A stretch of 64,000 nt of DNA from Escherichia phage phiWec187. Made by a program: the position numbers and the translations under genes. The stretch lies in the sequence record LC739536.1; one strand, written 5' to 3'. Positions within the stretch are counted from its first letter, which is position 1. Every line of letters starts with the position of its first letter. Shown piece by piece: positions 204-62,867 of the stretch. The notes under the pieces are model-generated. The model was given only the letters and a program-made list of their open reading frames with translations. It was not told the origin of the DNA and did no database searches.

Positions 204-530
204 TTACCAAACGTGTTGAGAAATAATAGTTTCCGTTTCAATGTTATATTTTTCAAGAATTTGTGCATAGGCTTCTTTTGCATTCTTATTTAGTTGCTCA
301 AGATCTACAGCTACACTTCCTTCGCCACCTTCTAAATAAATCCCATATATGCAATAAGATGCATCAGCGTCATAGAAAGGTGAGATACGGCTTAAATCAA
401 GACCTTCTTGTAAGAACCAATTAAAATCTCCATCAAATTCTTCTTCAATTCTAGGATCTTCTCCTACAGCCTCTTCCCATTTATTAAAAGGTGCACCCTG
501 TAACATACGCCATTCAGTGGCAACTCCCAT
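204..530 (-). CDS. hypothetical protein
   Basis: 108-aa ORF in co-directional gene array. Confidence 0.5.
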   Translation of the reverse strand: MGVATEWRMLQGAPFNKWEEAVGEDPRIEEEFDGDFNWFLQEGLDLSRISPFYDADASYCIYGIYLEGGEGSVAVDLEQLNKNAKEAYAQILEKYNIETETIISQHVW

Positions 531-666
531 TATCTTCCTCCTCTTCTTTTTCTTCCGTGTGAACGAAGCCTAAACCGTTACAATTCCAACACGGAATAAA
601 TTGTTCCATACTAACAATAAAATTCCCAGTACCACCGCAGATAGGACAAATACTTACATCATCCAT
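523..666 (-). CDS. small zinc-ribbon-like protein (about 47 aa)
   Basis: Not in ORF track; hand translation MDDVSICPICGGTGNF...CWNCNGLGF has CxxC...CxxC; stop overlaps the next start. Confidence 0.3.
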
Positions 667-668
667 TA

Positions 669-875
669 TTAAAGCTCCTCAATCTTTTCTAACATCTGTT
701 TTAACTCATTCTCTGTTAACAGAATTTCTGTGATACCATCATAAGTTTCTACCATCAGAGTAAAACATTTCTCTCCATCTGAACACACAAAAGCACCACC
801 TTCATCTTCTGTTAAGTCAGAATTAATATCTACATCAACAAAATCAATCATCTTTTTCTCCTTTGATAATTTCAA
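669..875 (-). CDS. hypothetical protein
   Basis: 68-aa ORF, acidic. Confidence 0.4.
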   Translation of the reverse strand: MKLSKEKKMIDFVDVDINSDLTEDEGGAFVCSDGEKCFTLMVETYDGITEILLTENELKQMLEKIEEL

Positions 876-1062
876 ACTTGGCTACACCATTAACTATAAT
901 GTGACCGCAAGACATAACTCCTAGCCAATGATCACCATTCTTTTTTAAACGTTTACCGTAAACATCACAGAAACCATTCTGTAATTCGGAAGCCTCATAA
1001 GAGGCTCCCTTTTCGAAAACGTCTTTGAAGTCAGAAATTAATCCAACACAAAGTAGTTTCAT
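844..1062 (-). CDS. hypothetical protein
   Basis: 72-aa ORF; start overlaps nrdB stop. Confidence 0.4.
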   Translation of the reverse strand: MKLLCVGLISDFKDVFEKGASYEASELQNGFCDVYGKRLKKNGDHWLGVMSCGHIIVNGVAKFEIIKGEKDD

Positions 1063-2147
1063 TAAAAGTCTAACTCCTCGTCATCACTTACATCTTTATT
1101 TGCTGAATTCAGTTTGTAAGCTGTAATTTGGATCTCCTGTGCTGCTGCTTGAATTTGATCTGGATTTAACCAAACATCCATCCAAGGCAGTGGACTTTTC
1201 TTCGGTGCACGGAATTTGTGTTTCATTTTCAGTCTGCGATAGATAGGCGCAGCATTGAAGTAAACCCAAAGTTTGAACAACTCTGCGTTACCACCAACGA
1301 TAATCCTTCCTTCACTAAACAGATAGTCACACCAATCTTCCTCTTGTCCAACTACCGTGTCAAGAATTTCTGTCAGAACGTAGATATTATCTTCGTATAC
1401 TTTTCTCCAGACAGGATCTTTCAGCAGTGCATCAATAATAGCATAATCCATTTTAACGTGCAATAGTTCATCCAACATAATTTTTTGAATGAGTTTAGCT
1501 GCACCTACAAACAGTTGCTGCTCTGCTAAGGCAAATGTTGCAGCAAAAGATGATATGAATTGAATGCCTTCCAGACCGATAAGTGCAATCATTCCTTTCA
1601 GAATCAGTAGACGAAGGTTATCATCCTTCTCAATCAGACCTAGAGCATACTTATGCCCTGCCTCTGCCAGATCACTCATTATCTCTTCAACTATACCCAT
1701 CCTCTGGAAGATTCTTTCGTTCTCCATAATCTGATCGATAACTTCATTTGGATTAGGGATACACTGACGAATAATTTCAGAATATGTCAAAGCGTGTAAA
1801 ACTTCCATTTCTGATTGCTTCATCATCATTGCACATGCTTCGTTGTTGCTTAAAAATGGTGCAAACAAAGTGATAATTGATTTAGCAAGTGAGTCATTTT
1901 CCCATTGGAAAGATAGGTTTTTGATCATAACATCATAGTTGCTTTTAGAACAAGCTACGAAATCTTTTCGTGTCTGATCTAAGTTTACTTCGTTTTCATC
2001 CCAATCTTGCTGTTTTTGTAGTTTGTACAGACGATGCATTTCTGGGTATGTTACATTAATAGAATCAAAAATACCTAACTGTTCTCCCAAAAATACAGGG
2101 TAGAAACCTTCTTTGTAAGTGTCGTTGTATAAATTAATCGCTGCCAT
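1062..2147 (-). CDS. nrdB: ribonucleotide reductase small subunit, class Ia
   Basis: 361 aa with R2-like length and acidic C-terminal tail ...DDEELDF; GGAGGA RBS upstream; adjacent to nrdA. Confidence 0.85.
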   Translation of the reverse strand: MAAINLYNDTYKEGFYPVFLGEQLGIFDSINVTYPEMHRLYKLQKQQDWDENEVNLDQTRKDFVACSKSNYDVMIKNLSFQWENDSLAKSIITLFAPFLSNNEACAMMMKQSEMEVLHALTYSEIIRQCIPNPNEVIDQIMENERIFQRMGIVEEIMSDLAEAGHKYALGLIEKDDNLRLLILKGMIALIGLEGIQFISSFAATFALAEQQLFVGAAKLIQKIMLDELLHVKMDYAIIDALLKDPVWRKVYEDNIYVLTEILDTVVGQEEDWCDYLFSEGRIIVGGNAELFKLWVYFNAAPIYRRLKMKHKFRAPKKSPLPWMDVWLNPDQIQAAAQEIQITAYKLNSANKDVSDDEELDF

Positions 2148-2469
2148 TTAAATCCTCCACAATATCACACATTGCTTTTATTGTATCAATGTGTTTTCTC
2201 TCCATACCATTCTCTATGTAAGCCTTCTCTAATGCGTTCCATACACTCTTTGTGAGTAGTACAGTAACCTCTCCGTCATATCTTGCCCTGGTTAAAGCAT
2301 ACCAGGTAGCTATGGGATCATTGGAAGCCCATATTTCAACACTGGAAAATTGAAAACCTGCAATATAATGACAACACCAATCGAATGTAAAATCTTTACT
2401 ATCTACCAGTGTATAATTTCCCCTGCGTCTTTGTGGTGTTGCCCCAGGTAATACAACTAATGTAGGCAT
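2134..2469 (-). CDS. hypothetical protein (start moved to internal ATG at 2469)
   Basis: Track start 2511 overlaps the nrdA stop and would translate a GC hairpin; ATG at 2467-2469 follows AAGGAGG. Confidence 0.45.
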   Translation of the reverse strand: MPTLVVLPGATPQRRRGNYTLVDSKDFTFDWCCHYIAGFQFSSVEIWASNDPIATWYALTRARYDGEVTVLLTKSVWNALEKAYIENGMERKHIDTIKAMCDIVEDLNGSD

Positions 2470-2482
2470 ATTCCTCCTTAAG

Positions 2483-2500
2483 AAAGGGGGGACAAAGCCC
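2483..2500 (-). terminator. GC hairpin between nrdA and next gene (attenuator or terminator)
   Basis: Minus strand GGGGGCTTTGTCCCCC then TTTCTT, then AAGGAGG and ATG. Confidence 0.4.
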
Positions 2501-2510
2501 CCTAGTTTCA

Positions 2511-4775
2511 TTACATTTTACAGGCGCTACACCCCTCGTCTTCAGAATCTTCTTGAGCGAGTGAGGATGCCGATTTTGTTCTGCTATTTAGATAGTACAA
2601 AGATTTACCACCAAGTTTTGCAAACTGAAGGATATATTGCATTTCTGATTTAATGGATAAACGACCACCTTCCATCTTAGAGTAGTCAATCCACTTATCA
2701 CATGATGCACCTTGATCTAAGAATTTAGTCAACAGGCCATATGCTTCAGCCATATCTTTATCTGGTGTATCCCAAGCCGATTGGTAAATATCTTTTAGTT
2801 TATCGTAGTCTGGCACAATAAACAGAACATTACCCTTTTGGCTTTGTTTATAAACTATAGTATCACGTACAGGATACACAGAGTTAGTCGTATTACTTAC
2901 AAGACTACTGGACTCATTTGGAGCAATAGCTGCTAATACGCTATTTCGGATACCACCTTGTGCAATGATATCTTGTCGTAAACCTTCCCAATCCATTTTA
3001 AGTTTAAAATTGCCAATATCGTCTACAGCTTTAGCGTAGGTATCAATAGGCAACCATCCTTCAGGCCATTTGGTTTTATGCATCCATTCTGCATTACCTT
3101 TCTCTTTTGCCAAACGAAGAGAAGCTCTTGCTAACCAATAATAATGTCTTTCTGCTAATTCGTGAATTAGTTTTTTGCCGTAAGGATCTGAATAAGTAAC
3201 AAAATTACTTGCCAGATAATGTGCAAGGTTTGTAATACCTACACCGATAGACCTACGTGCTTTAGCAGTGATTTCGTTATGTTTAAACGGATACTGCATT
3301 GTTTCAATAACATTATCAATAGTCAGAACGGTATAATATGCAACATCTTCATATTCTTCTGGTGTAACACGACCAGCTACAATAGAAGACAGGAAGCATA
3401 ATGCCAATTCTTGATCTTCTGTATTCTCACCTGTGAAAAGATCAGTCATATTGTGAAATGCTTTCGTAGGTAAGAAAATTTCTTGGCACAAGTTTGACTG
3501 GTAAATAACATCCTTAAACGGAGTATGCTTATTAGCATTATCCGCAAAGAACATATAAATACGTCCTGTCTCTGCTCTTTGTGTAATAATTTCTGCCAGA
3601 AGATCTCGTGCTTTTACAAACTTCTTCTTAATTCGTTTGCGACTAACTTTTTCATATACTTCTTCAAACTCTTCCTCGCTTTTATAAAGCGCCTCATAGA
3701 GTTCTGGTGCTTCGTCATAACTGACTAGCATCCAATCTTTACCTTTTGCTGCACGGCGCAGGAAAGCATTGTTTACTACAATAGAGTAATCAAGTTTATC
3801 TACTCGTTTTTCACTAACAGTAGTTGGGTTTTTCAAACGTACCAGATCTTCAAAATCAGGTTCTAGTATTGTAAACGTTACTGTTGCACTTCCACCACGA
3901 CTTGCTTGTTTTGATGCTCCAACACTTGTCTCCATCCATTTCAGATATGGTAAAAGACCACCGTGAACGATACGGTTGTTCTTAACACCTTGTCCTGTGG
4001 CACGGGTTTGAAGGTTAACACCAATACCTGCATTATTCAATGTATATTCATGCGCAAGATAGTTAGCAATTGCTAAAGATTCTGCTGTATCGTCTGCTCT
4101 AAACAGACAACAAGAAGCACTACCTTTAATCTTAGTACGCAAAGTTGTTAAATAAGGCGATGGTAAATTAATCTTAAGATCACTTACGTAGGTATATAGA
4201 CGTTTAATGTCTTCTACTCTGCGGTCTTTTGGTTGGATTTCCATTACCTTCATTGCTACACCAATGAATAAAAACTGTGGTGATTCAAAAACAACATCAT
4301 TGATCGCATCTTTCACAAGATACTTATCAACCATCTGGCGCAGTACGGAATAACCATAAGTTAGGTTTTTATCGTGATTGACAATCTTACCAATCTCAAT
4401 AATTTCTTCTTCTGTATAATCCATTTTCCCCCAATAGCCTTTACTTACAGACATATTGTAGAAATCCAGGAGGGAGGGGATATTGTGATATCCCCCATGA
4501 GCCTGTTTATAGATCATACCAAGAAGTAACCGACCTGCCATATCACTATATGCCTGATCTTTCTTATCAATACATGCTGCTATCATAGCTTTATGTAAAT
4601 CACGAGTAGGCACACCGTCGTAACAACGTTTAACAGCTTCGAGTTCGATTTCAGACCAATTTAATTTACCAGCAGCAAACTCTGACCATTTACGAAGTTT
4701 TTCTGGATTAAATTCTTCTTTCTTGCCGTTTGTTTTTGTTACATAACGGATAGATTTGCTTAGATACTGAGTCAC
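2511..4775 (-). CDS. nrdA: ribonucleotide reductase large subunit, class Ia
   Basis: 754 aa; N-terminal ATP-cone-like segment; NxCxE-like NLCQEI; C-terminal cysteine pair CSACKM. Confidence 0.9.
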   Translation of the reverse strand: MTQYLSKSIRYVTKTNGKKEEFNPEKLRKWSEFAAGKLNWSEIELEAVKRCYDGVPTRDLHKAMIAACIDKKDQAYSDMAGRLLLGMIYKQAHGGYHNIPSLLDFYNMSVSKGYWGKMDYTEEEIIEIGKIVNHDKNLTYGYSVLRQMVDKYLVKDAINDVVFESPQFLFIGVAMKVMEIQPKDRRVEDIKRLYTYVSDLKINLPSPYLTTLRTKIKGSASCCLFRADDTAESLAIANYLAHEYTLNNAGIGVNLQTRATGQGVKNNRIVHGGLLPYLKWMETSVGASKQASRGGSATVTFTILEPDFEDLVRLKNPTTVSEKRVDKLDYSIVVNNAFLRRAAKGKDWMLVSYDEAPELYEALYKSEEEFEEVYEKVSRKRIKKKFVKARDLLAEIITQRAETGRIYMFFADNANKHTPFKDVIYQSNLCQEIFLPTKAFHNMTDLFTGENTEDQELALCFLSSIVAGRVTPEEYEDVAYYTVLTIDNVIETMQYPFKHNEITAKARRSIGVGITNLAHYLASNFVTYSDPYGKKLIHELAERHYYWLARASLRLAKEKGNAEWMHKTKWPEGWLPIDTYAKAVDDIGNFKLKMDWEGLRQDIIAQGGIRNSVLAAIAPNESSSLVSNTTNSVYPVRDTIVYKQSQKGNVLFIVPDYDKLKDIYQSAWDTPDKDMAEAYGLLTKFLDQGASCDKWIDYSKMEGGRLSIKSEMQYILQFAKLGGKSLYYLNSRTKSASSLAQEDSEDEGCSACKM

Positions 4776-4786
4776 TTCCTCTCCTA

Positions 4787-5047
4787 TTAATTGTGCATGT
4801 TTAGAACATCTACATCATAACCGCCACGCATCTCGTTATATAAGCCATTTGCGTATAGAAAACCTTCAAAATGATCTATACCTTCAAAACCTTTTGCCTT
4901 TGCTTTGCGGTCTGCTTCTTGTCTTTTTGGTGATAATCTTTTAGATGTATCAAGGATAACTGTTACATTGCAACCTAATGTTTCATCAAAATAGACTTCA
5001 ATTTCACAGCCTTCATATTTATTACTTTCTGTCATTTGGCCTCTCAA
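4787..5047 (-). CDS. hypothetical protein
   Basis: 86-aa ORF downstream of nrdA. Confidence 0.45.
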   Translation of the reverse strand: MRGQMTESNKYEGCEIEVYFDETLGCNVTVILDTSKRLSPKRQEADRKAKAKGFEGIDHFEGFLYANGLYNEMRGGYDVDVLNMHN

Positions 5048-5458
5048 TTAGAATTCAGAATCATCATCTCGTGATGGATCATGTTCATTTCCGAAGTCTT
5101 CCATTTTGATATGAGAGCTACCCCAACCTGTAAAATCTTCTTCTCCAAAGTGCAAAATATCTACACCTTGATAGATTCGCTTATATTTATAGTCTTGTCG
5201 AACTGGGAAAGTATACAATGTAGTATTTGCAAACACCACACGTCGATTGTTGTTACTACGAATATTAACACCACGTTCTACTGTATAATGTCCATCGGTA
5301 GACATACCAAGCATTACTAATGCTGCTCGCAATGTGGTGTTATGATACTCGTGAGGAATTTTTCCTCCATGCTTTTTAGCCATTTCTTTCCAGATCGGTG
5401 TAGCCTTAATGGTAGACATACTTACGGTCGCCCAAATGGTTGTATTAATTAGTGACAT
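5048..5458 (-). CDS. hypothetical protein with acidic C-terminal tail
   Basis: 136 aa ending ...SRDDDSEF; own promoter and RBS upstream. Confidence 0.45.
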   Translation of the reverse strand: MSLINTTIWATVSMSTIKATPIWKEMAKKHGGKIPHEYHNTTLRAALVMLGMSTDGHYTVERGVNIRSNNNRRVVFANTTLYTFPVRQDYKYKRIYQGVDILHFGEEDFTGWGSSHIKMEDFGNEHDPSRDDDSEF

Positions 5459-5509
5459 AAATTCTCCTTCTCTCTTTTAAGGAGAGCATAGCTCTCCTAA
5501 CGTTAGCCT

Positions 5510-5538
5510 ATACTACACGAATCTCAATTAAAAGTCAA
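5510..5538 (-). promoter_or_regulatory. sigma70-like promoter on minus strand
   Basis: Minus strand TTGACT-N17-TAGTAT, then 5' UTR hairpin and GAAGGAG RBS. Confidence 0.45.
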
Positions 5539-49230: not shown

Positions 49231-51306
49231 ATGAAACAGGCTATTTTTACTGTAACTCGAAATACGAGAGTAAATGCCAGTTCATTCAGCTATAAGACCG
49301 TCGATGGAACGGCGGTCGCTGGTAGAGATTATGTAGCTAAACAGGGAACAGTAACGTTCCCTTCTGATGCAGATTCTGCTACTGTAGTGGTTGATGTATA
49401 TGAACGCCCGGCAAACTCTTTAGATCTTTATTTTACTCTTGAGATTACTAGCATAAGTCAAAATAACATGATGATCAATGAAGAAATTCGTTGTGTTATT
49501 ACGACTAATCAATCGAATACAACCCCGCTAACTTGGCCTGTTGTGAAGTCTAGAATGTTTGATCCTAAGTTTTGGACAATAGATTCTCAAGCAACAGAAA
49601 GTTGTTCTATTATCTCTAATGGTGATTCTTTCACAGCAAGAATGGTTAATAGGACAGTGGCTGGTCTTGCTGGGATTATTTGGTCAACTTACGATAAATA
49701 TGATCACAAAGGATTAGGCTACCAAGAACATTCTGATTTAAGTAAAGAAAAACTTTGGTTTAAAATGGAACTTAGTCAAGGTGTTCCTGGATTAAAAGAA
49801 GAAAAATTAATGCCATCCTTAACAGTGACACTGAAGGATGAAACAGTTCATTATATATCTCTAAACTTTTATGCAGAAGAAGTTTCAGAGGACGGTAAAA
49901 CAGCAATAATCAAATTAGATTTCTCAAATTTAAAATCTGGGCCAGAAAATGATATTGTTGTTGACACTACACAGATAGATAACATGTTCTTCTCCTTGAT
50001 TTCCGCAAGGTATCAAGAAATTGAAGATGTTATACCAGTAGACAATATAGATCTTTCCTTTAAGTTTACCATACTAGAGCCTGATACTGGTTACAGTATG
50101 ATGAATATGGGTAATTTAAATGTTCCGGCGCACACCATAAGAATGTGTACATCTTATGATGATATGTATAACCTAACCCCAGAGCGAGTTATTTCTAACA
50201 CCTATAGATTAGGTTATAGAGATATGATTAACCATTATAATGGTATGTCACACTATTATCAATTTAGTTGGGATGCTGGATCTAATAAATGGGCTTTGAA
50301 CAGAACAGAATATTTAAACCCAGCAACAGAGGCCTGGTTTGATAATTTCCACGCTAATGCAAAAGCTATGGGCTACACAGTAATGAACTCCTTAAGTTTT
50401 GAAATTATGAGTACAGTGTGTCCTGTAGAATGGGTACAACATACTTGGAATGATGATCTGGCTGCTACAGGTTATGAGCCACCAAGTTATGTTTTATCTC
50501 CTTCAATTGATGAAGGGATGAATTATTTACAAGGTGTAATAAATAAGATAGCTTCTATATCCGCTGCTAATGATCTTCCGGTTATTATTCAGGTTGGTGA
50601 ACCGTGGTGGTGGTATAACACAGCTACCAATCTCCCGTGTATTTATGATTATGCAACCAAAGTTGCATTTAATAATGAAACTGGATTATATGCACAAGAT
50701 GTTGGTACAGTTAAGAATTATAAAACTGGTACACCATATGATGAATATTATGCATTCTTATCTAAAACATTAGGACTGCGTGTTGCTAAATTTGCAACAG
50801 ATACTAGATTAGCATATCCTGGAGCAAAAGTTACATTGTTACCATTTGTACCATCCATCTTAGGTAACGGTATGATGGAATTTGTTAACTTCCCTAAAGA
50901 TTATTATATCCCAGAAAACTTTGACTTTTATTGTTCAGAATGTTATGACTGGTTGTTGGAAGGTCAGATGGAAAGATCTTTCGATGCTATCACAATACCT
51001 AATGAACAATTAGGTTTTAGTTATGATAAGATACATTATCTTGCAGGGTTTGTTCCAGATGCAACTCTAGCACCATTATATGGCTTTGATCCTGAATCAG
51101 ACTACAGAACATATTTGTGGAAAATGATTATAGGTAATATTGTATTGAATGACCAGAGGTTTGTTGGTTTGTATCAATACATATGGGCTTATCCACAAAT
51201 TATGGCAGATTCATTAACTGTTCTTAATTCAAAATCCCAAGTTTTTTATATGGGTAACGTACCTCTGAATGTCTTTTTACAAGATACAGTATATGTTTCT
51301 TCTTAA
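49231..51306 (+). CDS. large structural protein, function unknown
   Basis: 691-aa ORF following the 958-aa gene. Confidence 0.4.
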   Translation: MKQAIFTVTRNTRVNASSFSYKTVDGTAVAGRDYVAKQGTVTFPSDADSATVVVDVYERPANSLDLYFTLEITSISQNNMMINEEIRCVITTNQSNTTPLTWPVVKSRMFDPKFWTIDSQATESCSIISNGDSFTARMVNRTVAGLAGIIWSTYDKYDHKGLGYQEHSDLSKEKLWFKMELSQGVPGLKEEKLMPSLTVTLKDETVHYISLNFYAEEVSEDGKTAIIKLDFSNLKSGPENDIVVDTTQIDNMFFSLISARYQEIEDVIPVDNIDLSFKFTILEPDTGYSMMNMGNLNVPAHTIRMCTSYDDMYNLTPERVISNTYRLGYRDMINHYNGMSHYYQFSWDAGSNKWALNRTEYLNPATEAWFDNFHANAKAMGYTVMNSLSFEIMSTVCPVEWVQHTWNDDLAATGYEPPSYVLSPSIDEGMNYLQGVINKIASISAANDLPVIIQVGEPWWWYNTATNLPCIYDYATKVAFNNETGLYAQDVGTVKNYKTGTPYDEYYAFLSKTLGLRVAKFATDTRLAYPGAKVTLLPFVPSILGNGMMEFVNFPKDYYIPENFDFYCSECYDWLLEGQMERSFDAITIPNEQLGFSYDKIHYLAGFVPDATLAPLYGFDPESDYRTYLWKMIIGNIVLNDQRFVGLYQYIWAYPQIMADSLTVLNSKSQVFYMGNVPLNVFLQDTVYVSS

Positions 51307-51317
51307 GGATCTCTAGT

Positions 51318-51563
51318 ATGAGAAAATTTTTAATAGGTATGTTTTGTACATATCCTGATAATAAAGTCAGTTCTACTAAAGTTTGGAATGCTATTGGTAT
51401 GATTGTTATGTCCAGTATGTTTATTTATTTGGGAATTGATAAAGAAATTCCTGAATGGATGGGCTGGGCTTTTGTTTTTATGATCACACCATCCAGACTG
51501 ATGAAGAATTTAATAGATTTACGTTGGGGCAGATCACCTGCCCCTGATAAGGAGGATAACTAA
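51318..51563 (+). CDS. small membrane protein
   Basis: 81 aa, two hydrophobic segments, charged C-terminus; embedded among baseplate genes. Confidence 0.35.
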   Translation: MRKFLIGMFCTYPDNKVSSTKVWNAIGMIVMSSMFIYLGIDKEIPEWMGWAFVFMITPSRLMKNLIDLRWGRSPAPDKEDN

Positions 51564-55249: not shown

Positions 55250-55591
55250 ATGGAGCTAACAGAAGTATGGGATATCGCTAAAGAGGCGATTATCCCTCTT
55301 ATTGGCGTAATCTGGGTGGTCTTCAAACAGAAGATAGATGATATGGCAAGTGATTTGGATAAAATGGAAGACAAATACCGCGAACTAGAAAAGAAGTTGG
55401 TGTTTGTTGAATCCACTTATGCTACCAAAGCAGAACTTGCTCAAATGCTTAACCAGATCAACTCTACATTAATGGCAAATAATACTGCCTTAGAACAGAA
55501 GATTGAAAAAATAATGGATTTAAAAAATGCTCCTGTTCAATTAATGCTAGAGGAGATTACAAAGCGCACACAAAGTAAGGACAAAAATTAA
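55250..55591 (+). CDS. hypothetical membrane-anchored coiled-coil protein
   Basis: 113 aa; N-terminal hydrophobic segment then coiled-coil. Confidence 0.35.
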   Translation: MELTEVWDIAKEAIIPLIGVIWVVFKQKIDDMASDLDKMEDKYRELEKKLVFVESTYATKAELAQMLNQINSTLMANNTALEQKIEKIMDLKNAPVQLMLEEITKRTQSKDKN

Positions 55592-58005
55592 TGGCGAATT
55601 TTCCAACATATCCTGCTACGACACTAGAACAAGGTGTTGATCTGGTTATATTCTCGTCTAACCAGATGCATGATGTTATTAATGGGGATGCTACAGCAAC
55701 TGTAGAAACCGAAACAGGTTTAATACCTACACTGCGTAAAGCACTTGTTGATAACTTCTTCTTTAAGAGTCCTGTTGCTTGGTCAGCAGGATCAACTGAA
55801 ACTGTATTTAACCAGTTACGTTATTTTGAAAACGGTATCTTGAGTGGGTACTATTATGCCCCATCTGCCACTACTGCGAACCCTGTACCTATGCAGGGCA
55901 CACCTGTAGGGGACAGTAACTGGACTCTGTACGCTCTTAAAACTGAACAGTTAGCTTCAGATGTGTATCCTTGGTATTTTAAAGGTGCTACAGGATATGA
56001 AACAGAAATCAGTCCTCCTTATATCTTTGATAATGCTATTGTCACCATTAACGGTGTAATTCAGATTCAAGGTGAAGCATTTACTATCAAAGATAGTAAA
56101 ATTATTCTGGCAGAACCATTAGGTTTAGATCCGTCTACTGGTCTACCTAACAAATTGTTTGCTTTTATTGGTAAAACAACAGCTTCTACTTCTTACGTAG
56201 AGAAAAACCTTTTGTCATCTACTACTGGTGCAGCAATGGTTGGTCTTCCATCTGGAGGCAACCTGTTACAAGCTCAATACTTTGTAACGCCTGAGCAGTT
56301 TGGTGCAATTGGTGATGGAGTTACCGATGATACTCAAGCAATTTTAAAAACTATCACTTTCGCTAACACGAATAACATTCAAGTACGTGCAGATAAGAAT
56401 TATAGATTCACAAGCTCAATTGCTATGTCTGGTATTCGTTGGTATGGTGGTACATTCACTGGTAACGGTGGAACAATGATTTCTACTGTGTCCTGTTGGA
56501 TGGAAAACGTTCGCTTTGAAAAATGTTATGTTAAGATGTTAGGTGGTGATTGCCGATTCTATCGTAATATCTTCTCCAACGCAACATCTACAGCAGCATT
56601 CTTAATGCAAGCAATGACAAGTGAAGGTACGTTGGACTTCAGTTACAACGAAATGTATGGTTGTAAATATGCGATCCTGCAACAAGGTACTGGAGAAGTA
56701 ATGACCTACGGGCGTTACTCTAACAACTATATTCACGATATCAAAGGTGATGCTATTGAACTTAACGTAGTTCAAAAACACTACACTGAAGGTTTGATTA
56801 TCGAGAATAACCACATTGCTAACGTAGATGCTTCTGGACAAGGTGCAAACTGGGGTATTGGTATTGGTGTAGCAGGTAGTGGCCCATATGGTGTTGATGT
56901 TCCTGATTCACAATATGTACGTAATTTCAGTATCGTTGGGAATAGGGTTTACAATTGCCGTCAATGTTTACACGTTGAAATGGGTAAAAACTTCACAATA
57001 CGTGATAATGAAGTTTATCCTAACACAGCAGTTTCAACAGGTACAGGTTTAACTACTTGTGGTGTTGCATTATACGGATGCCAAGATTTTGAAGTTGATG
57101 GTTTAACTGGTTATCTGCTCAATGATCCGTCTGTTTCAACACGTATGGTCTTTATTGACTGGGGTGTTAACAGTGGAAGATATGCGGGGCCACCAATTAA
57201 CTTTACAATTAAGAATTTGGATATTCCAGAATCTTCAATTGAGATTGCAACATCTGGATCAGATGCCTGGGAAAACTCTACAATTGTTAGTAATATCAAT
57301 TGTAATATTTTTAAATGGCGTGGGCTACCATCTAGCTCTACCTTTAATAATATTCGTTGCCGTAGTATTGACTTTATTGGTCAACACGGAAGCGGAGAAG
57401 GAAGTGGTGGCGGTTTCTATACTCGCAGCCAATTCACGTATATGAAGTGGGTAGGATGTACAGCACTTAGCGGAGATGAAACAACAGTTTCTTTTGCTAA
57501 AATCTACACTGATCGTTGCGATCAGGTTGGAAATAACTTTGGTGTTCCAACTGCTGTTGATGGTACAGGTCATCGTGGGCCAGTTTTAACTACTATTTCT
57601 GAACAATATTTTACAGCTTATGATGAATTCCCAGGTGGGCGTGAATTCCCTACTGGAACAGTTATTCATTGTGCAAGCGGTAAAAAACATGTTGTTACAG
57701 TAGGTGGTGCTTTCTTTAGTGACAACGAGAAAATAAAAGCAACTGTTACAGGTCAAACCTATCTACAGTCTAATGCTTTAAACTGGGCTAGTAATGGCTA
57801 CGCTAAAGCAGCAGGTACTAAGATTGTTATTCCAGGTGCAGGTGCAAATGGCGGCGATCTTGTGACAACTATAGCACGTGCTACATATGTGACAAATAGT
57901 TTGTACACAATAGATATTGCAGATCCAATTGTAACACCTACAGCAGAGAATACACAAATTAAAGCTCTGAATCCTGTTACTTTTGTTACTGTCAATAATG
58001 CTTAA
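55591..58005 (+). CDS. tailspike with pectate-lyase-like beta-helix domain
   Basis: FGAIGDGVTDDTQAILKTI is the signature of right-handed beta-helix glycanases in tailspikes. Confidence 0.55.
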   Translation: MANFPTYPATTLEQGVDLVIFSSNQMHDVINGDATATVETETGLIPTLRKALVDNFFFKSPVAWSAGSTETVFNQLRYFENGILSGYYYAPSATTANPVPMQGTPVGDSNWTLYALKTEQLASDVYPWYFKGATGYETEISPPYIFDNAIVTINGVIQIQGEAFTIKDSKIILAEPLGLDPSTGLPNKLFAFIGKTTASTSYVEKNLLSSTTGAAMVGLPSGGNLLQAQYFVTPEQFGAIGDGVTDDTQAILKTITFANTNNIQVRADKNYRFTSSIAMSGIRWYGGTFTGNGGTMISTVSCWMENVRFEKCYVKMLGGDCRFYRNIFSNATSTAAFLMQAMTSEGTLDFSYNEMYGCKYAILQQGTGEVMTYGRYSNNYIHDIKGDAIELNVVQKHYTEGLIIENNHIANVDASGQGANWGIGIGVAGSGPYGVDVPDSQYVRNFSIVGNRVYNCRQCLHVEMGKNFTIRDNEVYPNTAVSTGTGLTTCGVALYGCQDFEVDGLTGYLLNDPSVSTRMVFIDWGVNSGRYAGPPINFTIKNLDIPESSIEIATSGSDAWENSTIVSNINCNIFKWRGLPSSSTFNNIRCRSIDFIGQHGSGEGSGGGFYTRSQFTYMKWVGCTALSGDETTVSFAKIYTDRCDQVGNNFGVPTAVDGTGHRGPVLTTISEQYFTAYDEFPGGREFPTGTVIHCASGKKHVVTVGGAFFSDNEKIKATVTGQTYLQSNALNWASNGYAKAAGTKIVIPGAGANGGDLVTTIARATYVTNSLYTIDIADPIVTPTAENTQIKALNPVTFVTVNNA

Positions 58006-58008
58006 TTA

Positions 58009-58032
58009 AAAAGGGGCGAAAGCCCCTTTATA
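58009..58032 (+). terminator. hairpin terminator after tailspike gene
   Basis: AAAAAGGGGCGAAAGCCCCTTTAT; same sequence as the 8881-8900 hairpin on the opposite strand. Confidence 0.45.
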
Positions 58033-58046
58033 AAAGGAGTAGTAAA

Positions 58047-60008
58047 GTGATTTTAACACGTCCAAATAGTGCCATTGCAGACATGGTAGAGTCTCGCTAT
58101 AGAAAGCGTAGAAGTTTTGCAAGTGGTTTTACCTTAAGAGATGCTCGTGAAGCATTGCTCTTTGAAACTGACGGTAACTACTATCAGTGGAAAGGTTCTC
58201 TACCTAAAGTTGTACCTGCTAACTCTACTCCTACATCTACTGGAGGGATTTCAGATACAGCTTGGAAAAATGTGGGTAATGCAGATGACATTGCTCAAAT
58301 AGAATCAGAATTAGATGCTATTGAAGCTGAAATTGAAGATCTTAGAGAATCCATTCCAGAGGCTGGTAAATCAGCTTACCAGATTGCCGTAGACAATGGT
58401 TTCCAAGGTACTGAGACAGAGTGGTTGGCTTCTTTAAAAGGTGATCCAGGTGCTCCATTAAAGCTACTAGGGACGCTATCTAATACCAACCAATTACCTA
58501 CAACTGGAAACAATGCAGGGGATGCATGGATTGTAGGCGAGAATATGTATGCTTGGGATGGTACTGCTTGGAGAAAAGTAAACTCACAGGGGCCAGAAGG
58601 TAAATCTGCTTATGAAGTATGGCTTGCAGCAGGAAACGAAGGTACAGAACTAGATTATCTTGCCGCAATTAAAGGTGATAAAGGGGAGCCTGGCCCAGAG
58701 GGGCCACAAGGTGTGCCAGGTAATAATGCTAATGGTTTTGATTACCAAGGCGCAGCTAATTCCGTTTCAGATCTTCCTTCTGCATCTCCTGGAAACACAT
58801 CTCAAGCATGGAGTATTGGTACATATCTATACGTGTCAAACGGTGTAGAATGGATCAATATGGGCGCTATAGTGGGGCCAAAAGGAGATAAAGGCGACAA
58901 AGGAGATAAGGGTAACACTGGTGATTCAGCTTATCAAGTCTGGTTAAATGCTGGTAACGTTGGTACTATTGACGAATATATTGCCTCTCTGAAAGGAGAA
59001 AAAGGTGATAAGGGAGACAAGGGTGATCAAGGTGAACAGGGTATACAAGGCTTGACGGGGCCAACTGGTGCAGGGTTGACCATTATTGACATTCTGACTA
59101 GCACTTCTGAACTACCACAAACTGGAGAAGATGGCGATGGTTATCTGATCAATAATGAACTTTGGGTCTGGTTGCAAGGAGCCACAGAGTGGACAAATGT
59201 TGGTCGTTTAGCTGGTACTCCAATCACTGCAAAAGGACACGTTGCGTCTGCAAGTGCACTTCCTCCTACAGCCAATTACGGTGATGCTTATCTGACGGAA
59301 GATACAGGTCATCTTTACATTTACACCTATGATGAACAAACTCAAACTGCTGAATATGTAGATATGGGTAGTTTGAAAGGTGATAAGGGTGAAAAAGGTG
59401 ACGCTGGTACTAACGGTACAGACGGTGCAACTTGGATTGTTAAAACAACAGATCCAATCTCTAGTGATGGTAAACAAGGTGATTATGCCTTTAATATCTC
59501 CACTGGCGAGGTGTTCTTAAAAACATCTGCAACTATCTGGACTTCTCAAGGTACACTACCTAGTATCACAGATGCACCTAGTGATGGTAAGACTTATGCT
59601 CGTAAAGATGGAGCATGGGAAGAACTCACTAATTCTGTAGATGGTCAAGATATAGTTCCAACAAAAGTAACAACTAATTTTATAGAGGTTACAGCATATA
59701 CTAACAATTCTGTTACAGGGGACTGGACACCTCCAGGAACACATAACATGAATGTGTTGAATCTTACTGGTAACTCTACTATAAAAGCATGGCCTGGTGT
59801 CGAAGATAGCACAAAACCTAAACCATTCTCTGCAATAGTTTATCTTATCCAAGATGCCACTGGAGGTCGTACTGTTACTTTAGATCCATCTTACAAAGTA
59901 ATTGGTTCCAGTGATATTAATACAGATCCTAACGGAGTAACAATACTACAACTAACATATTGTGGTGTTGGCGATTACGTGGATGCTATTGTTGCTAAAC
60001 GCACATAA
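58047..60008 (+). CDS. tail fibre with collagen-like and fibre-repeat modules
   Basis: Gly-X-Y runs (GDKGDKGDKGNTG, GEKGDKGDKGDQGEQG) alternate with three repeats of a GKSAYQ...WL...LKGD module. Confidence 0.55.
   Translation: MILTRPNSAIADMVESRYRKRRSFASGFTLRDAREALLFETDGNYYQWKGSLPKVVPANSTPTSTGGISDTAWKNVGNADDIAQIESELDAIEAEIEDLRESIPEAGKSAYQIAVDNGFQGTETEWLASLKGDPGAPLKLLGTLSNTNQLPTTGNNAGDAWIVGENMYAWDGTAWRKVNSQGPEGKSAYEVWLAAGNEGTELDYLAAIKGDKGEPGPEGPQGVPGNNANGFDYQGAANSVSDLPSASPGNTSQAWSIGTYLYVSNGVEWINMGAIVGPKGDKGDKGDKGNTGDSAYQVWLNAGNVGTIDEYIASLKGEKGDKGDKGDQGEQGIQGLTGPTGAGLTIIDILTSTSELPQTGEDGDGYLINNELWVWLQGATEWTNVGRLAGTPITAKGHVASASALPPTANYGDAYLTEDTGHLYIYTYDEQTQTAEYVDMGSLKGDKGEKGDAGTNGTDGATWIVKTTDPISSDGKQGDYAFNISTGEVFLKTSATIWTSQGTLPSITDAPSDGKTYARKDGAWEELTNSVDGQDIVPTKVTTNFIEVTAYTNNSVTGDWTPPGTHNMNVLNLTGNSTIKAWPGVEDSTKPKPFSAIVYLIQDATGGRTVTLDPSYKVIGSSDINTDPNGVTILQLTYCGVGDYVDAIVAKRT
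58880..59420 (+). repeat. collagen-like Gly-X-Y coding repeats
   Basis: Reiterated AAAGG(A/T)GA(T/A)AAGGG units at about 58881, 58990 and 59377. Confidence 0.5.
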
Positions 60009-60009
60009 T

Positions 60010-60035
60010 CAAAGCCCCTTCTGGGGCTTATTATT
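60010..60035 (+). terminator. hairpin terminator after collagen-like fibre gene
   Basis: AGCCCC-TTCT-GGGGCT then TATTATTT. Confidence 0.45.
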
Positions 60036-60047
60036 TAAGGAGATTAA

Positions 60048-62867
60048 ATGTATCCTATTCCTTTATTTATGTCAACAACATCAGCTTCAGTAGTAACAGC
60101 TACATCTATAACTACTTCCTCTATTGGTATTGCAATAGTTGGTGGTAAAAAACAACTGACATACACAGTTACACCGGAAGATGGTGCATTATTTGATATA
60201 GCTTTTTCATCTTCAGATAATACCAAAATGGTTATAGATAATAGTGGTATGATGGAGTTTGTTGCCGAAGGTGGTTTTGATGCAATAATGACAGCTAAAA
60301 ATAATTTAGGTGCTGTCTTAACTGATCAATCTGGTGGTTATGCTTCAGAATTAAGTGTGTACACTGAAAGTCTATCGGCTATGGATGTAGGCACTACTCA
60401 ACAGTTGGTTGCTACAATCAGTCCAGAAGGTGCTAAAGACCTTCCAGATATGGTAATTACATACACCACAACAGATCCAGAAGTAGCTACTGTAAGCCCT
60501 ACAGGGTTAATAACTGCTCTTAAAGATGGCGGTTGCCGTATAGGTTGTACTGCAACGTATCAAGGAACAGTTGTGGCCTCTGATAGGTCTTATTTAGGTG
60601 TTAATGCTATTCCTGTTATTTCTAATGTAACAGCCGTGGCAAACAGTTATGGAGACGTTCGTGTTGCTTGGGATGTAACTGATCCGCTAGACGGTGATAC
60701 TTATACTGTAGAAGTATTAGATTTAAGTAATAATAGTGTTCAGTGGACTACAACAACCACGAATACTTACGCTTACTTTGATATCTCTGACTCTATTCCT
60801 CTTTATGGGTTTGCTCCAACATACCTTAAAATTAGCGTTAAGAGCACCAAAGCAGCAGCCGTTATCTTTAATAACTCAATAGCTACAGATGATTCGTTCA
60901 TTAAAGAAGTTATTGTCTTTGCTGGACAAGATAACGTAAATGCACACTTTACAGAACTATCTGGTGCAAATAAAGCAGCAATGAGTAGCACAACAGCCCG
61001 TAATGCATATGCCACGCAACGTGGTTTAGCAAATGCTGAAGTTCTTCCGTTAAATACAGCTTCTGGATCATCAGCAGCAGATAAATATGCAGATGATAAA
61101 GCCGGAACAGGAACACCAGACAACTACTGGTATGATCTGGATAACACAGCAGATGGGCCATGCTTAACTAACTTTATCACTAAAGTCACACCTTATGCAA
61201 GTAAGGTTAAAGCCATTATTTGGGGACAAGGTGAAAATGATGCTGTATCAGCATCTTCGACTGTTGCAGGTAGGTACAGTAACACTACACGTTACCATGA
61301 TGCTACGATAGCCATCTTTGATAAGATGCGTACAATAGTTCCTGCTTCTCAAGCAAAAATTGTTTGGCAGATCCTAGGACGTTCTTATTTATATGGTGTA
61401 GAAGTTAATGGTGTGGATTGGCAGAAGTACAGAAATGTACAAAGAACCATCTCTACAGCACGTGATGATGTTATCATTGGTTCTTGGGTAGATGGTGCTG
61501 AACGTTACAGTGGTTATGTTTATGAAGAAGGTATTGATGGTCGTATCCATTATATTTCTTCTGTATACCAAACAGCAGCTACAAAACTTGCTAAATCAGC
61601 AGCAGACGGTACAGACTTAACATCAACGTCACCTGTTTGGGTTGATATGGCTGTTCCAACTGGAGCAACAGCTACTTCCCAATCTAATCAAGATACAATT
61701 TTAGCATGGGATGCTCAAGGCTATAGTAAACACTACTTCCGTAATATTAACGTCTTAACCGCATCTGTATTAACTGAACAAACGCTTAATACGAACAGTT
61801 ATACGTTTACCTATGCAGATCAAGTAGCACAATATGGCTTTGCAGCAGGAACTACTATATTTGATGTTGCATATTATGACGAAGCAAATGATGTGTTATC
61901 TCCTTTAGTACGTTTTAATGTTAACGTTACAGCAGGAACCGTAGAAGATAAACCTGTAGTGATGGATTATGATTTAACACAAGAAACTCTTCCATCAGAT
62001 GTTAAGGTTAATGGTGGGAACTCTTTTGCTCGTACTTCTGGAGATACACTTGTAGCCACTAACACCTTGGTTGCTCCGTTGGAGTATATTGGTACTACCC
62101 CTGTAGGTAGACGTGTAACAGCTAACACAGCTACACAAATTTTTGTCAACAACGCCTTAACAAGTGCAAGCCCGTGGGTAAAGACCAACTTAACTGTTGC
62201 AGCTTCATCTGATAACTCTCCGGTTGGAACTACTGCTAATGTATTCAAATTAACTCCGACTACAACCTCTGGTAGTCATATCTTAACTGCAACATATACT
62301 AACGCGTACAACATATCTGCCGGACGTAACTGGTCTGCCTCTGTTTTCTTGAAAGCGAACGGGATTACTAAGGCCAAACTAAGATTAAAAGCAGGAACTG
62401 AAGTTAATGAGGGTACTTTTGATTTAGCAGCAGGTACATTCACAGGAAGTGAAGCTAATATTATATCTATGGGCAACGGTTGGTATCGTGCTATTCTGCA
62501 TAAAACAGGGATAGCCAAACAGTCCTCCATAAGTTTTGAAATAATTGCCTTGGATGCAACTGGTGCGGAGATTTTCGCTGGAGATGGTACTAGTAACCTT
62601 GCAGTTTGGTTGCCACAGCTTGAAGGTGCTTCTACAGGAGAAACATCAAAAGCTGGATCGCCTTATGTCTGCACATATCCTGGAAATTTAGGAGGAGTAT
62701 CCTTCACTATACCAAGGAACGGACATACTGGTGTGGATGTTTACTATTCCAACGGAGACGTTGTTCGTGACGTATTCTCTGGTACGGCATCTACTTGGAC
62801 AATAAACTACTCCAGCTTGTACGATTGGGGATCAGTCTTTATTACAGGTTTGAAATATTACGACTAA
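60048..62867 (+). CDS. tail fibre / receptor-binding protein with Ig-like domains
   Basis: 939 aa; two Big_2-like segments in N-terminal third; Thr/Ser-rich; terminator downstream. Confidence 0.5.
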   Translation: MYPIPLFMSTTSASVVTATSITTSSIGIAIVGGKKQLTYTVTPEDGALFDIAFSSSDNTKMVIDNSGMMEFVAEGGFDAIMTAKNNLGAVLTDQSGGYASELSVYTESLSAMDVGTTQQLVATISPEGAKDLPDMVITYTTTDPEVATVSPTGLITALKDGGCRIGCTATYQGTVVASDRSYLGVNAIPVISNVTAVANSYGDVRVAWDVTDPLDGDTYTVEVLDLSNNSVQWTTTTTNTYAYFDISDSIPLYGFAPTYLKISVKSTKAAAVIFNNSIATDDSFIKEVIVFAGQDNVNAHFTELSGANKAAMSSTTARNAYATQRGLANAEVLPLNTASGSSAADKYADDKAGTGTPDNYWYDLDNTADGPCLTNFITKVTPYASKVKAIIWGQGENDAVSASSTVAGRYSNTTRYHDATIAIFDKMRTIVPASQAKIVWQILGRSYLYGVEVNGVDWQKYRNVQRTISTARDDVIIGSWVDGAERYSGYVYEEGIDGRIHYISSVYQTAATKLAKSAADGTDLTSTSPVWVDMAVPTGATATSQSNQDTILAWDAQGYSKHYFRNINVLTASVLTEQTLNTNSYTFTYADQVAQYGFAAGTTIFDVAYYDEANDVLSPLVRFNVNVTAGTVEDKPVVMDYDLTQETLPSDVKVNGGNSFARTSGDTLVATNTLVAPLEYIGTTPVGRRVTANTATQIFVNNALTSASPWVKTNLTVAASSDNSPVGTTANVFKLTPTTTSGSHILTATYTNAYNISAGRNWSASVFLKANGITKAKLRLKAGTEVNEGTFDLAAGTFTGSEANIISMGNGWYRAILHKTGIAKQSSISFEIIALDATGAEIFAGDGTSNLAVWLPQLEGASTGETSKAGSPYVCTYPGNLGGVSFTIPRNGHTGVDVYYSNGDVVRDVFSGTASTWTINYSSLYDWGSVFITGLKYYD

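Follow-up and report, generated by a model that had tools for sequence, protein, structure and literature searches.

The 64,000-nt stretch of DNA from Escherichia phage phiWec187 analysed here (sequence record LC739536.1; hereafter the window) carries on its + strand, at positions 58047–60008, an open reading frame (ORF) with a GTG start codon that encodes a 653-residue fibre protein, exactly where a first-pass annotation of the window had placed it. The gene is 99.6% identical in nucleotide sequence and 99.4% identical in amino acid sequence to gp151 of phage phi92 (YP_009012483.1), is of equal length, and is the orthologue of phi92 gp151. Flanking genes and ribosome-binding site are shared as well, and the gene itself shows no material difference from its phi92 counterpart. 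The profile of PHROG family phrog_15437 ("tail fiber protein") matches the protein end to end (residues 1–653 against profile positions 1–656 of 656; E = 0, 1360 bits), and the orthologues across 54 Justusliebigvirus records are 97.3–99.6% identical. Schwarzer et al. (2012) listed phi92 gp151 as a "potential tail fiber", according to reviews and GenBank notes; the protein has also been noted in the literature among four conserved fibre proteins of phi92 relatives, and several GenBank records label the gene "lateral tail fiber protein with type I collagen domain". Both the gene and its annotation predate this analysis, and the first-pass observation of a collagen-like fibre is correct and ordinary. 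The features of the gene and its borders are listed below, where AF2 stands for the AlphaFold2 monomer model and HMM for hidden Markov model.

58010–58029, + strand: GC-rich hairpin AAAGGGGC-GAAA-GCCCCTTT, between the gp150 stop codon and the gp151 ribosome-binding site (read from the sequence)
58035–58039, + strand: AGGAG ribosome-binding site, 7 nt 5' of the GTG (read from the sequence; the phi92 annotation marks the same motif)
58047–60008, + strand: coding sequence, phi92 gp151 orthologue (ORF call, nucleotide and protein match, PHROG profile)
58077–58277, + strand: N-terminal anchor domain, Pfam Tail_spike_N (PF18668), aa 11–77 (Pfam profile)
58281–58364, + strand: short coiled-coil segment, aa 79–106 (AF2 and heptad register)
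58365–58445, + strand: module A copy 1, aa 107–133, two-helix hairpin ending in SLKGD (alignment and AF2, helices 110–116 and 123–130)
58455–58586, + strand: module B copy 1, aa 137–180, four-strand beta unit (alignment, HMM, AF2)
58599–58679, + strand: module A copy 2, aa 185–211 (alignment and AF2)
58674–58721, + strand: Gly-X-Y tract 1, aa 210–225, 5 triplets (in-phase Gly count; length constant in the full-length orthologues P0001–P0014)
58734–58874, + strand: module B copy 2, aa 230–276 (alignment, HMM, AF2)
58875–58922, + strand: Gly-X-Y tract 2, aa 277–292, 5 triplets, 4–10 in orthologues (in-phase Gly count, tandem repeats, orthologue comparison)
58920–59000, + strand: module A copy 3, aa 292–318 (alignment and AF2)
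58995–59069, + strand: Gly-X-Y tract 3, aa 317–341, 8 triplets, 7–9 in orthologues (region of the Pfam Collagen match)
59073–59213, + strand: module B copy 3, aa 343–389 (alignment, HMM, AF2)
59220–59375, + strand: module B copy 4, aa 392–443, with an inserted hairpin extension (alignment, HMM, AF2)
59379–59426, + strand: Gly-X-Y tract 4, aa 445–460, 5 triplets, from at most 2 to 12 in orthologues (tandem repeats, orthologue comparison)
59427–59555, + strand: divergent B-like module, aa 461–503, four predicted strands (alignment, AF2)
59559–59639, + strand: fibritin foldon-like motif, aa 505–531 (Pfam Fibritin_C below its cut-off, family profiles, alignment)
59649–60005, + strand: C-terminal beta-sandwich tip, aa 535–653, probable receptor-binding end
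60012–60029, + strand: terminator-like hairpin directly after the stop codon (terminator scan)

Tracts, modules and domains of the gp151 protein

The four collagen-like stretches claimed by the first-pass annotation are all present, with 5, 5, 8 and 5 triplets, and lie far beyond chance: four runs of at least five in-phase glycines were observed, against 0.01 expected from 2000 shuffles of the protein. The Pfam Collagen model (PF01391) matches at tract 3 (E = 8e-8; 32.4 bits against a cut-off of 27.2). The tracts are rich in charge, with Asp or Glu at X in 13 of the 23 triplets, Lys at Y in 10 of them, and 13 KG[DE] motifs. Work on collagen peptides has established that charge patterns of the KGD/KGE type stabilise Pro-poor triple helices. 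Pro-poor, charge-rich bacterial Gly-X-Y sequence beside a non-collagen trimerisation element is likewise found in the streptococcal adhesins Scl1/Scl2 (NF038330, NF038329); these, however, carry an LPXTG anchor and a V-domain, neither of which has a counterpart in gp151, and the likeness is one of composition only. The NCBIfam matches to Scl1/Scl2 and Lcl in the Gly-X-Y region score 28–47 bits, far under the cut-offs of 325–500 (325–400 for Scl1/Scl2).

The 27-residue module reported earlier, here called module A, is indeed present in three copies, which have 14–16 of 27 residues in common (z 12–16); none of 500 shuffles reached the score. Between and after these copies lies a second repeat, module B, with the motif LP..G..GDAW.V...Y.W.G..W..VG, of which there are four clear copies (pairwise z up to 8.4) and the divergent unit at aa 461–503; the latter is undetected by the module B HMM and is also missing from orthologue P0014. 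The AF2 monomer shows A as a two-helix hairpin, which closes with SLKG-D/E, and B as a four-stranded beta unit of ~45 residues, with a predicted local distance difference test score (pLDDT) of ~80–86. No Pfam model matched A or B in the version of the database searched, not even where a protein has 16 B copies, and a PDB search detected no solved structure for either module by sequence. A likeness of module A to DUF2934 was sub-threshold (E = 0.08) and was not used. A search at E ≤ 1e-3 finds module B in 2,613 representatives of 50%-identity clusters, with up to 16 copies per protein; it often alternates strictly with Gly-X-Y tracts, as in relative P0127. An Mtd_N match in the same relative is spurious, sitting on low-complexity Gly-X-Y sequence.

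The repeats had been said to be visible at the DNA level. This holds for the Gly-X-Y tracts, inside which Tandem Repeats Finder reports 9- and 18-nt periodicities, the only ones it finds, with imperfect units (75–90% matches). The signal is weaker for module A, whose 81-nt copies are 57–64% identical with short seeds of 19–27 nt, and the longest exact direct repeat in the whole gene is 14 nt (AAAGGTGATAAGGG, in two KGDKG stretches). Likewise, the description of the protein as collagen-like tracts alternating with the 27-residue module is right as far as it goes but incomplete, omitting the anchor, the coiled coil, module B, the foldon-like motif and the tip.

The N-terminal anchor is a confident Tail_spike_N match (E = 3.4e-21; 75.6 bits against a cut-off of 25) with AF2 pLDDT of 86–89. 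It matches, in sequence and fold, the N-terminal parts of the tailspikes TSP1/3/4 of CBA120 and gp63.1 of G7C, as well as several newer structures, with PDB matches including 9vvr, 4oj5, 5w6f and 4qnl. The likeness to the CBA120 and G7C anchors is clear over gp151 aa 18–90; those tailspikes, however, run on into beta-helix enzymes, whereas gp151 runs on into the collagen and module shaft, and no enzymatic domain was detected in gp151. Next to the anchor, the coiled-coil segment has I82, I85, L89, I92, I96, L99 and I103 at heptad a/d positions, closing with A106, and is a single helix at aa 81–102 in the AF2 monomer.

After the shaft comes the foldon-like motif, for which Pfam Fibritin_C (PF07921) scores 19.5 bits (E = 1e-3), just below its cut-off of 21; relatives carry precomputed PF07921 matches. 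The alignment with the T4 foldon gives 12 identities over 27 residues, with A-P-x-D-G, Y-x-R-K-D-G and W among them. Family profiles match dozens of foldon-tagged PDB chains (E 0.003–0.05), including 1nay, which is (Gly-Pro-Pro)10-foldon, and 9gfr, and the AF2 monomer has two short strands at the site with modest confidence. In T4 fibritin the foldon is the C-terminus and follows a long coiled coil, whereas the gp151 motif is internal, is followed by a 120-residue tip, and lacks the long fibritin coiled coil. The foldon has been used experimentally to nucleate collagen peptides (PDB 1nay, 9gfr), and in these engineered chimeras it lies C-terminal to Gly-X-Y sequence, as in gp151. In the 622-residue P0014, which lacks the fifth, B-like module, tract 4 leads directly into the foldon-like motif (…KGENGQDGVSG-IPEAPNDAKLYGRKSQAW…), a junction that, judged by its sequence, is a natural equivalent of the engineered collagen-foldon constructs. 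Relatives P0022–P0034 and P0058 (780–1090 residues) have 3–9 tandem foldon-like motifs, EAPxDGxxYxRxxGxW, and then a different C-terminal domain. A match to 8rk3 (JBD30) was borne mainly by the foldon-like stretch and was set aside.

PDB profile and BFVD fold searches show the tip to be common to many tail fibres, among them those of rV5-like phages, PVP-SE1, phiTE, Ro1 and KpS8. These searches were more informative than a word-indexed search with the C-terminal 151 residues, which returned four proteins only. The C-terminal domain has a precomputed match to PF26209. In the 793-residue putative tail fibre of Pectobacterium phage phiTE (9cuy/9mjn chain g), the C-terminal ~125 residues are homologous to gp151 (E = 3e-17); the C-terminal part is unmodelled in the phiTE map, and the tip fold given here is a predicted one. 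For the tips of this group, which includes the rV5-like and PVP-SE1-like phages, tblastn identities are 43–50%. The shafts of the phiTE, rV5-like and PVP-SE1-like fibres, by contrast, are unrelated to that of gp151.

The tail-fibre assignment made from the sequence alone is supported by the PHROG profile, the Tail_spike_N domain, the gene position and the shared tip. The same features bear on another location for the protein, a head or neck appendage like the T4 fibritin whiskers or the Pa223 capsid spike, which we regard as very unlikely. It is suggested only by the foldon-like motif and by Pa223 capsid-spike matches that are weak, whereas the N-terminal domain belongs to a family that anchors tailspikes to tail structures (CBA120, G7C and others), the gene belongs to the tail-fibre cluster, with the colanidase tailspike on one side and a further tail protein on the other, and the tip is that of annotated tail fibres. 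The Pa223 fold match was not counted as evidence for a capsid location; the full-length fold search is dominated by the N-terminal anchor.

Length variation among relatives

We aligned the window protein with those of phi92, four other Justusliebigvirus phages and two Phapecoctavirus orthologues (~62% identity). Every indel in the shaft consists of whole triplets inside a Gly-X-Y tract (tracts 2–4), and the two Phapecoctavirus proteins also have gaps of one residue in their C-terminal tips; the alignment shows no other indels. All 13 full-length orthologue clusters (57–98% identity) have three A modules, four HMM-detected B modules and one foldon-like motif. The number of triplets in these clusters is always 5 in tract 1, and ranges over 4–10 in tract 2, 7–9 in tract 3 and from at most 2 to 12 in tract 4. 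The first-pass annotation had called for a comparison of repeat copy number across relatives; in these full-length orthologues copy number does vary for the triplets, but not for modules A and B. The comparison is based on isolate genomes; a scan of IMG/VR gave two loci only, one of them phage PD06.

Within the genus there are two alleles among 54 full-length GenBank records, 46 of exactly 1962 nt and 8 of 1971 nt. The 9-nt tandem units of tract 4 occupy 59376–59402; between 59393 and 59394 the 1971-nt allele carries one further unit, AAAGGTGAG, next to AAAGGTGAC. Six phages share the same sequence over the 101 nt around this indel. In a neighbour-joining tree of 18 genes, computed without bootstrap values, the longer allele forms approximately one clade with one short-allele isolate nested in it, which implies one gain and at most one loss. 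Changes in triplet number do occur, though rarely and within the collagen tracts only, and their pattern is that left by slippage or by unequal exchange of 9-nt units. Thus, of the slippage-driven length variation that had been suggested for both kinds of repeat, the part concerning the Gly-X-Y tracts stands, as a rare event, but the 27-residue module is kept at three copies in all full-length orthologues down to 57% identity and cannot slip, since its DNA copies are too divergent (57–64%).

These data also speak to the idea of a hypervariable, contingency-type locus in which frequent repeat slippage tunes fibre length and host range. The presence of 9-nt tandem units, one 9-nt indel between isolates and triplet numbers that differ between genera would fit it. 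However, 54 records spanning many countries and hosts contain two alleles only, the longer of which is essentially one clade; the units are imperfect (75–90%), with no exact repeat longer than 14 nt; and module copy numbers are constant in all full-length orthologues. We therefore consider a contingency locus extremely unlikely.

A further question is whether the length differences between genera arose mainly by recombination between the Gly-X-Y tracts of different fibre genes and not by slippage. In its favour, the wider family has 0–19 copies of A, 0–11 of B, 10–158 triplets and differing C-terminal ends, which suggests module shuffling over long timescales. In addition, PHROG family 4549 (a tail-fibre family of 869 positions) matches the N-terminal part (aa 9–116) of the gp150 homologue encoded at 55591–58005 and, separately, the C-terminal tip of gp151 (aa 526–653), which indicates putative mosaic exchange between the neighbouring fibre genes. 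Finally, relative to P0008, P0018 (Escherichia phage vB_EcoM_EP57, 512 residues) has lost tract 3, B3 and B4 through an in-frame deletion that starts within A3 and extends to where tract 4 ends; the shortening is either natural or an artefact of assembly, the record being only 130.7 kb long. On the other side, the sole indel that can be resolved in the DNA amounts to one simple tandem unit of 9 nt with identical sequence on both sides, and the expanded orthologue tracts are runs of near-identical triplets like GTNGTNGTDGTNG, the pattern expected of local duplication. Recombination as the main source is in our view rather doubtful; it probably contributes to the differences between genera alongside slippage, the two processes not being mutually exclusive.

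Sequence variation within the genus is distributed unevenly along the gene, with 0–5 variable sites per 100 nt in the anchor and tip and 4–14 in the shaft. The low variation at the two ends agrees with conservation of both the docking site and the host target, and is in line with a comment by the BASEL authors on the conserved fibre locus.

A proposed segmented fibre

We consider it likely that gp151 is a homotrimeric segmented fibre, with collagen-type spacers between folded nodes, a foldon-like closure of the trimer and the tip at the binding end. In this scheme the Tail_spike_N domain would dock the fibre onto the baseplate or fibre network, and the short Ile/Leu coiled coil would start trimerisation. 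The shaft would be a string of nodes, namely three A hairpins and four or five beta B modules, joined by four charge-rich Gly-X-Y segments, each putatively a collagen-type triple helix of ~4–7 nm. A collagen helix rises ~0.86 nm per triplet, and the 23 triplets would add roughly 20 nm to the fibre. The foldon-like motif would close the trimer ahead of the beta-sandwich tip, which may contact a conserved host surface structure. The Gly-X-Y segments would act as spacers of adjustable length and the A and B nodes as fixed structural elements. Since imperfect 9-nt tandem units make up the DNA of the tracts, whole triplets would now and then be gained or lost by replication slippage or unequal recombination, a change apparently tolerated in tracts 2–4 and not in tract 1.

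Several points weigh against this proposal. The tracts are short, at 5–8 triplets, and Pro-poor, with Pro at 6 of 46 X/Y positions, so that their stability would depend on the flanking nodes. The pLDDT of the AF2 monomer is below 50 in every tract, which is expected of a single chain and lends no support either. In a 2026 cryo-electron microscopy study of phi92, the AlphaFold3 model of gp151 could be fitted to none of the fibre densities, and the authors describe the function of the protein as uncharacterised; according to the BASEL paper, the assignment of genes to individual lateral fibres in this group is unclear. The roles proposed for modules A and B would, moreover, follow from their position only.

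Some of these observations would also suit tracts that are flexible Gly-rich hinges between trimeric nodes, their triplet periodicity a relic of the 9-nt DNA repeat: the tracts are short and Pro-poor, AF2 confidence is below 50 in all of them, and no solved structure covers them (a PDB sequence search with the shaft alone returned only collagen peptides, with E > 0.2). A mere linker, however, would tolerate any change in length, whereas, down to 57% identity, Gly phasing is strict and indels comprise whole triplets. The tracts are enriched in the KGD/KGE pattern, Pfam Collagen scores above its cut-off, and the length of tract 1 is fixed in full-length orthologues. Experiments on collagen-like fibre proteins of E. 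coli prophages have demonstrated trimers with a triple helix, and the Col domains of these proteins differ in length by multiples of three residues (PMC3368898). On account of the phasing and whole-triplet indels, the charge-rich tracts, the fixed tract 1 and, by analogy, this precedent, we favour true triple helices and judge hinges to be unlikely.

The prophage proteins in question, EPclA–D of E. coli O157 prophages (Ghosh et al. 2012, PMC3368898), resemble gp151 in having an N-terminal attachment domain, a coiled coil, collagen sequence interrupted by a globular repeat, and a C-terminal trimerisation domain. They differ in their flanking domains, PfN (PF08400), Pf2 (PF03406) and PfC (PF06820), and in Col domains of at least 111 residues against 15–24 residues per gp151 tract. 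None of PF08400, PF03406 and PF06820 was found in the Pfam scan of gp151 at E ≤ 0.1, and the likeness to the EPcl proteins is architectural only. Both collagen-like tail-fibre segments and whole-triplet variation are already documented.

Neighbouring genes, source phage and significance

The gene neighbourhood is that of phi92, with a tail-fibre assembly gene, a small lipoprotein gene and the colanidase tailspike gene gp150 upstream and a tail protein gene downstream. The gene keeps its place, flanked by the genes for the colanidase tailspike and the next tail protein, in the window, phi92, SD2, ECGD1, EC.P2 and alia, and in the Phapecoctavirus phages DE16 and phiWec179. Short ORFs of 62–98 residues overlapping the gene on either strand show no sign of being genes. 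The gene is flanked on both sides by GC-rich hairpins (58010–58029 and 60012–60029), of which the upstream one was not called by the terminator scan because no T-run follows its stem; the pair could be transcript-end or stability elements, or cassette boundaries.

The downstream gene at 60048–62867 is a single intact ORF of 939 residues with Big_2 domains and a weak SASA esterase match, 98–99% identical to "tail carbohydrate esterase" or "tail protein" genes in phages inny, ALITA and alia; the corresponding phi92 interval is shorter by ~1.16 kb and carries two annotated genes, gp152 and gp153. Further upstream, the window phage lacks the phi92 endosialidase gene gp143 (window 49231–51563 against phi92 278–5517). 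Only ~257 nt separate the gp145 homologue (51563) from a 691-residue ORF (49231–51306) whose product has Calx-beta, NCTSP_N and TIM-barrel_NCTSP domains. Given the absence of gp143 from the window, the source phage is a relative of phi92 and not phi92 itself.

The gp151 gene was also found in four unannotated "Campylobacter phage" records of ~146.4 kb, MG065639 (A150), MG065645 (A145), MG065656 (C3) and MG065689 (A110a), in which it is 98.6% identical to that of an E. coli Justusliebigvirus. One more such record (A140) has a match to the rV5-type fibre tip. The host assignment of these records looks doubtful.

On its own the finding matters little, the protein being a near-identical copy of a published phage protein. 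What interest remains attaches to modules A and B, as repeats without curation, and to the fact that collagen-like tracts and a foldon-like motif are naturally paired. Tentatively, A and B may be undescribed trimeric registration nodes that let Pro-poor, non-hydroxylated helices of 5–8 triplets fold in register, a possibility to which we give somewhat less than even weight; together with the internal foldon they would then form a natural counterpart of collagen-foldon design. Modules A and B are widespread, uncurated fibre repeats, and if they are registration nodes they would be worth structural study and of interest for the design of collagen mimetics.

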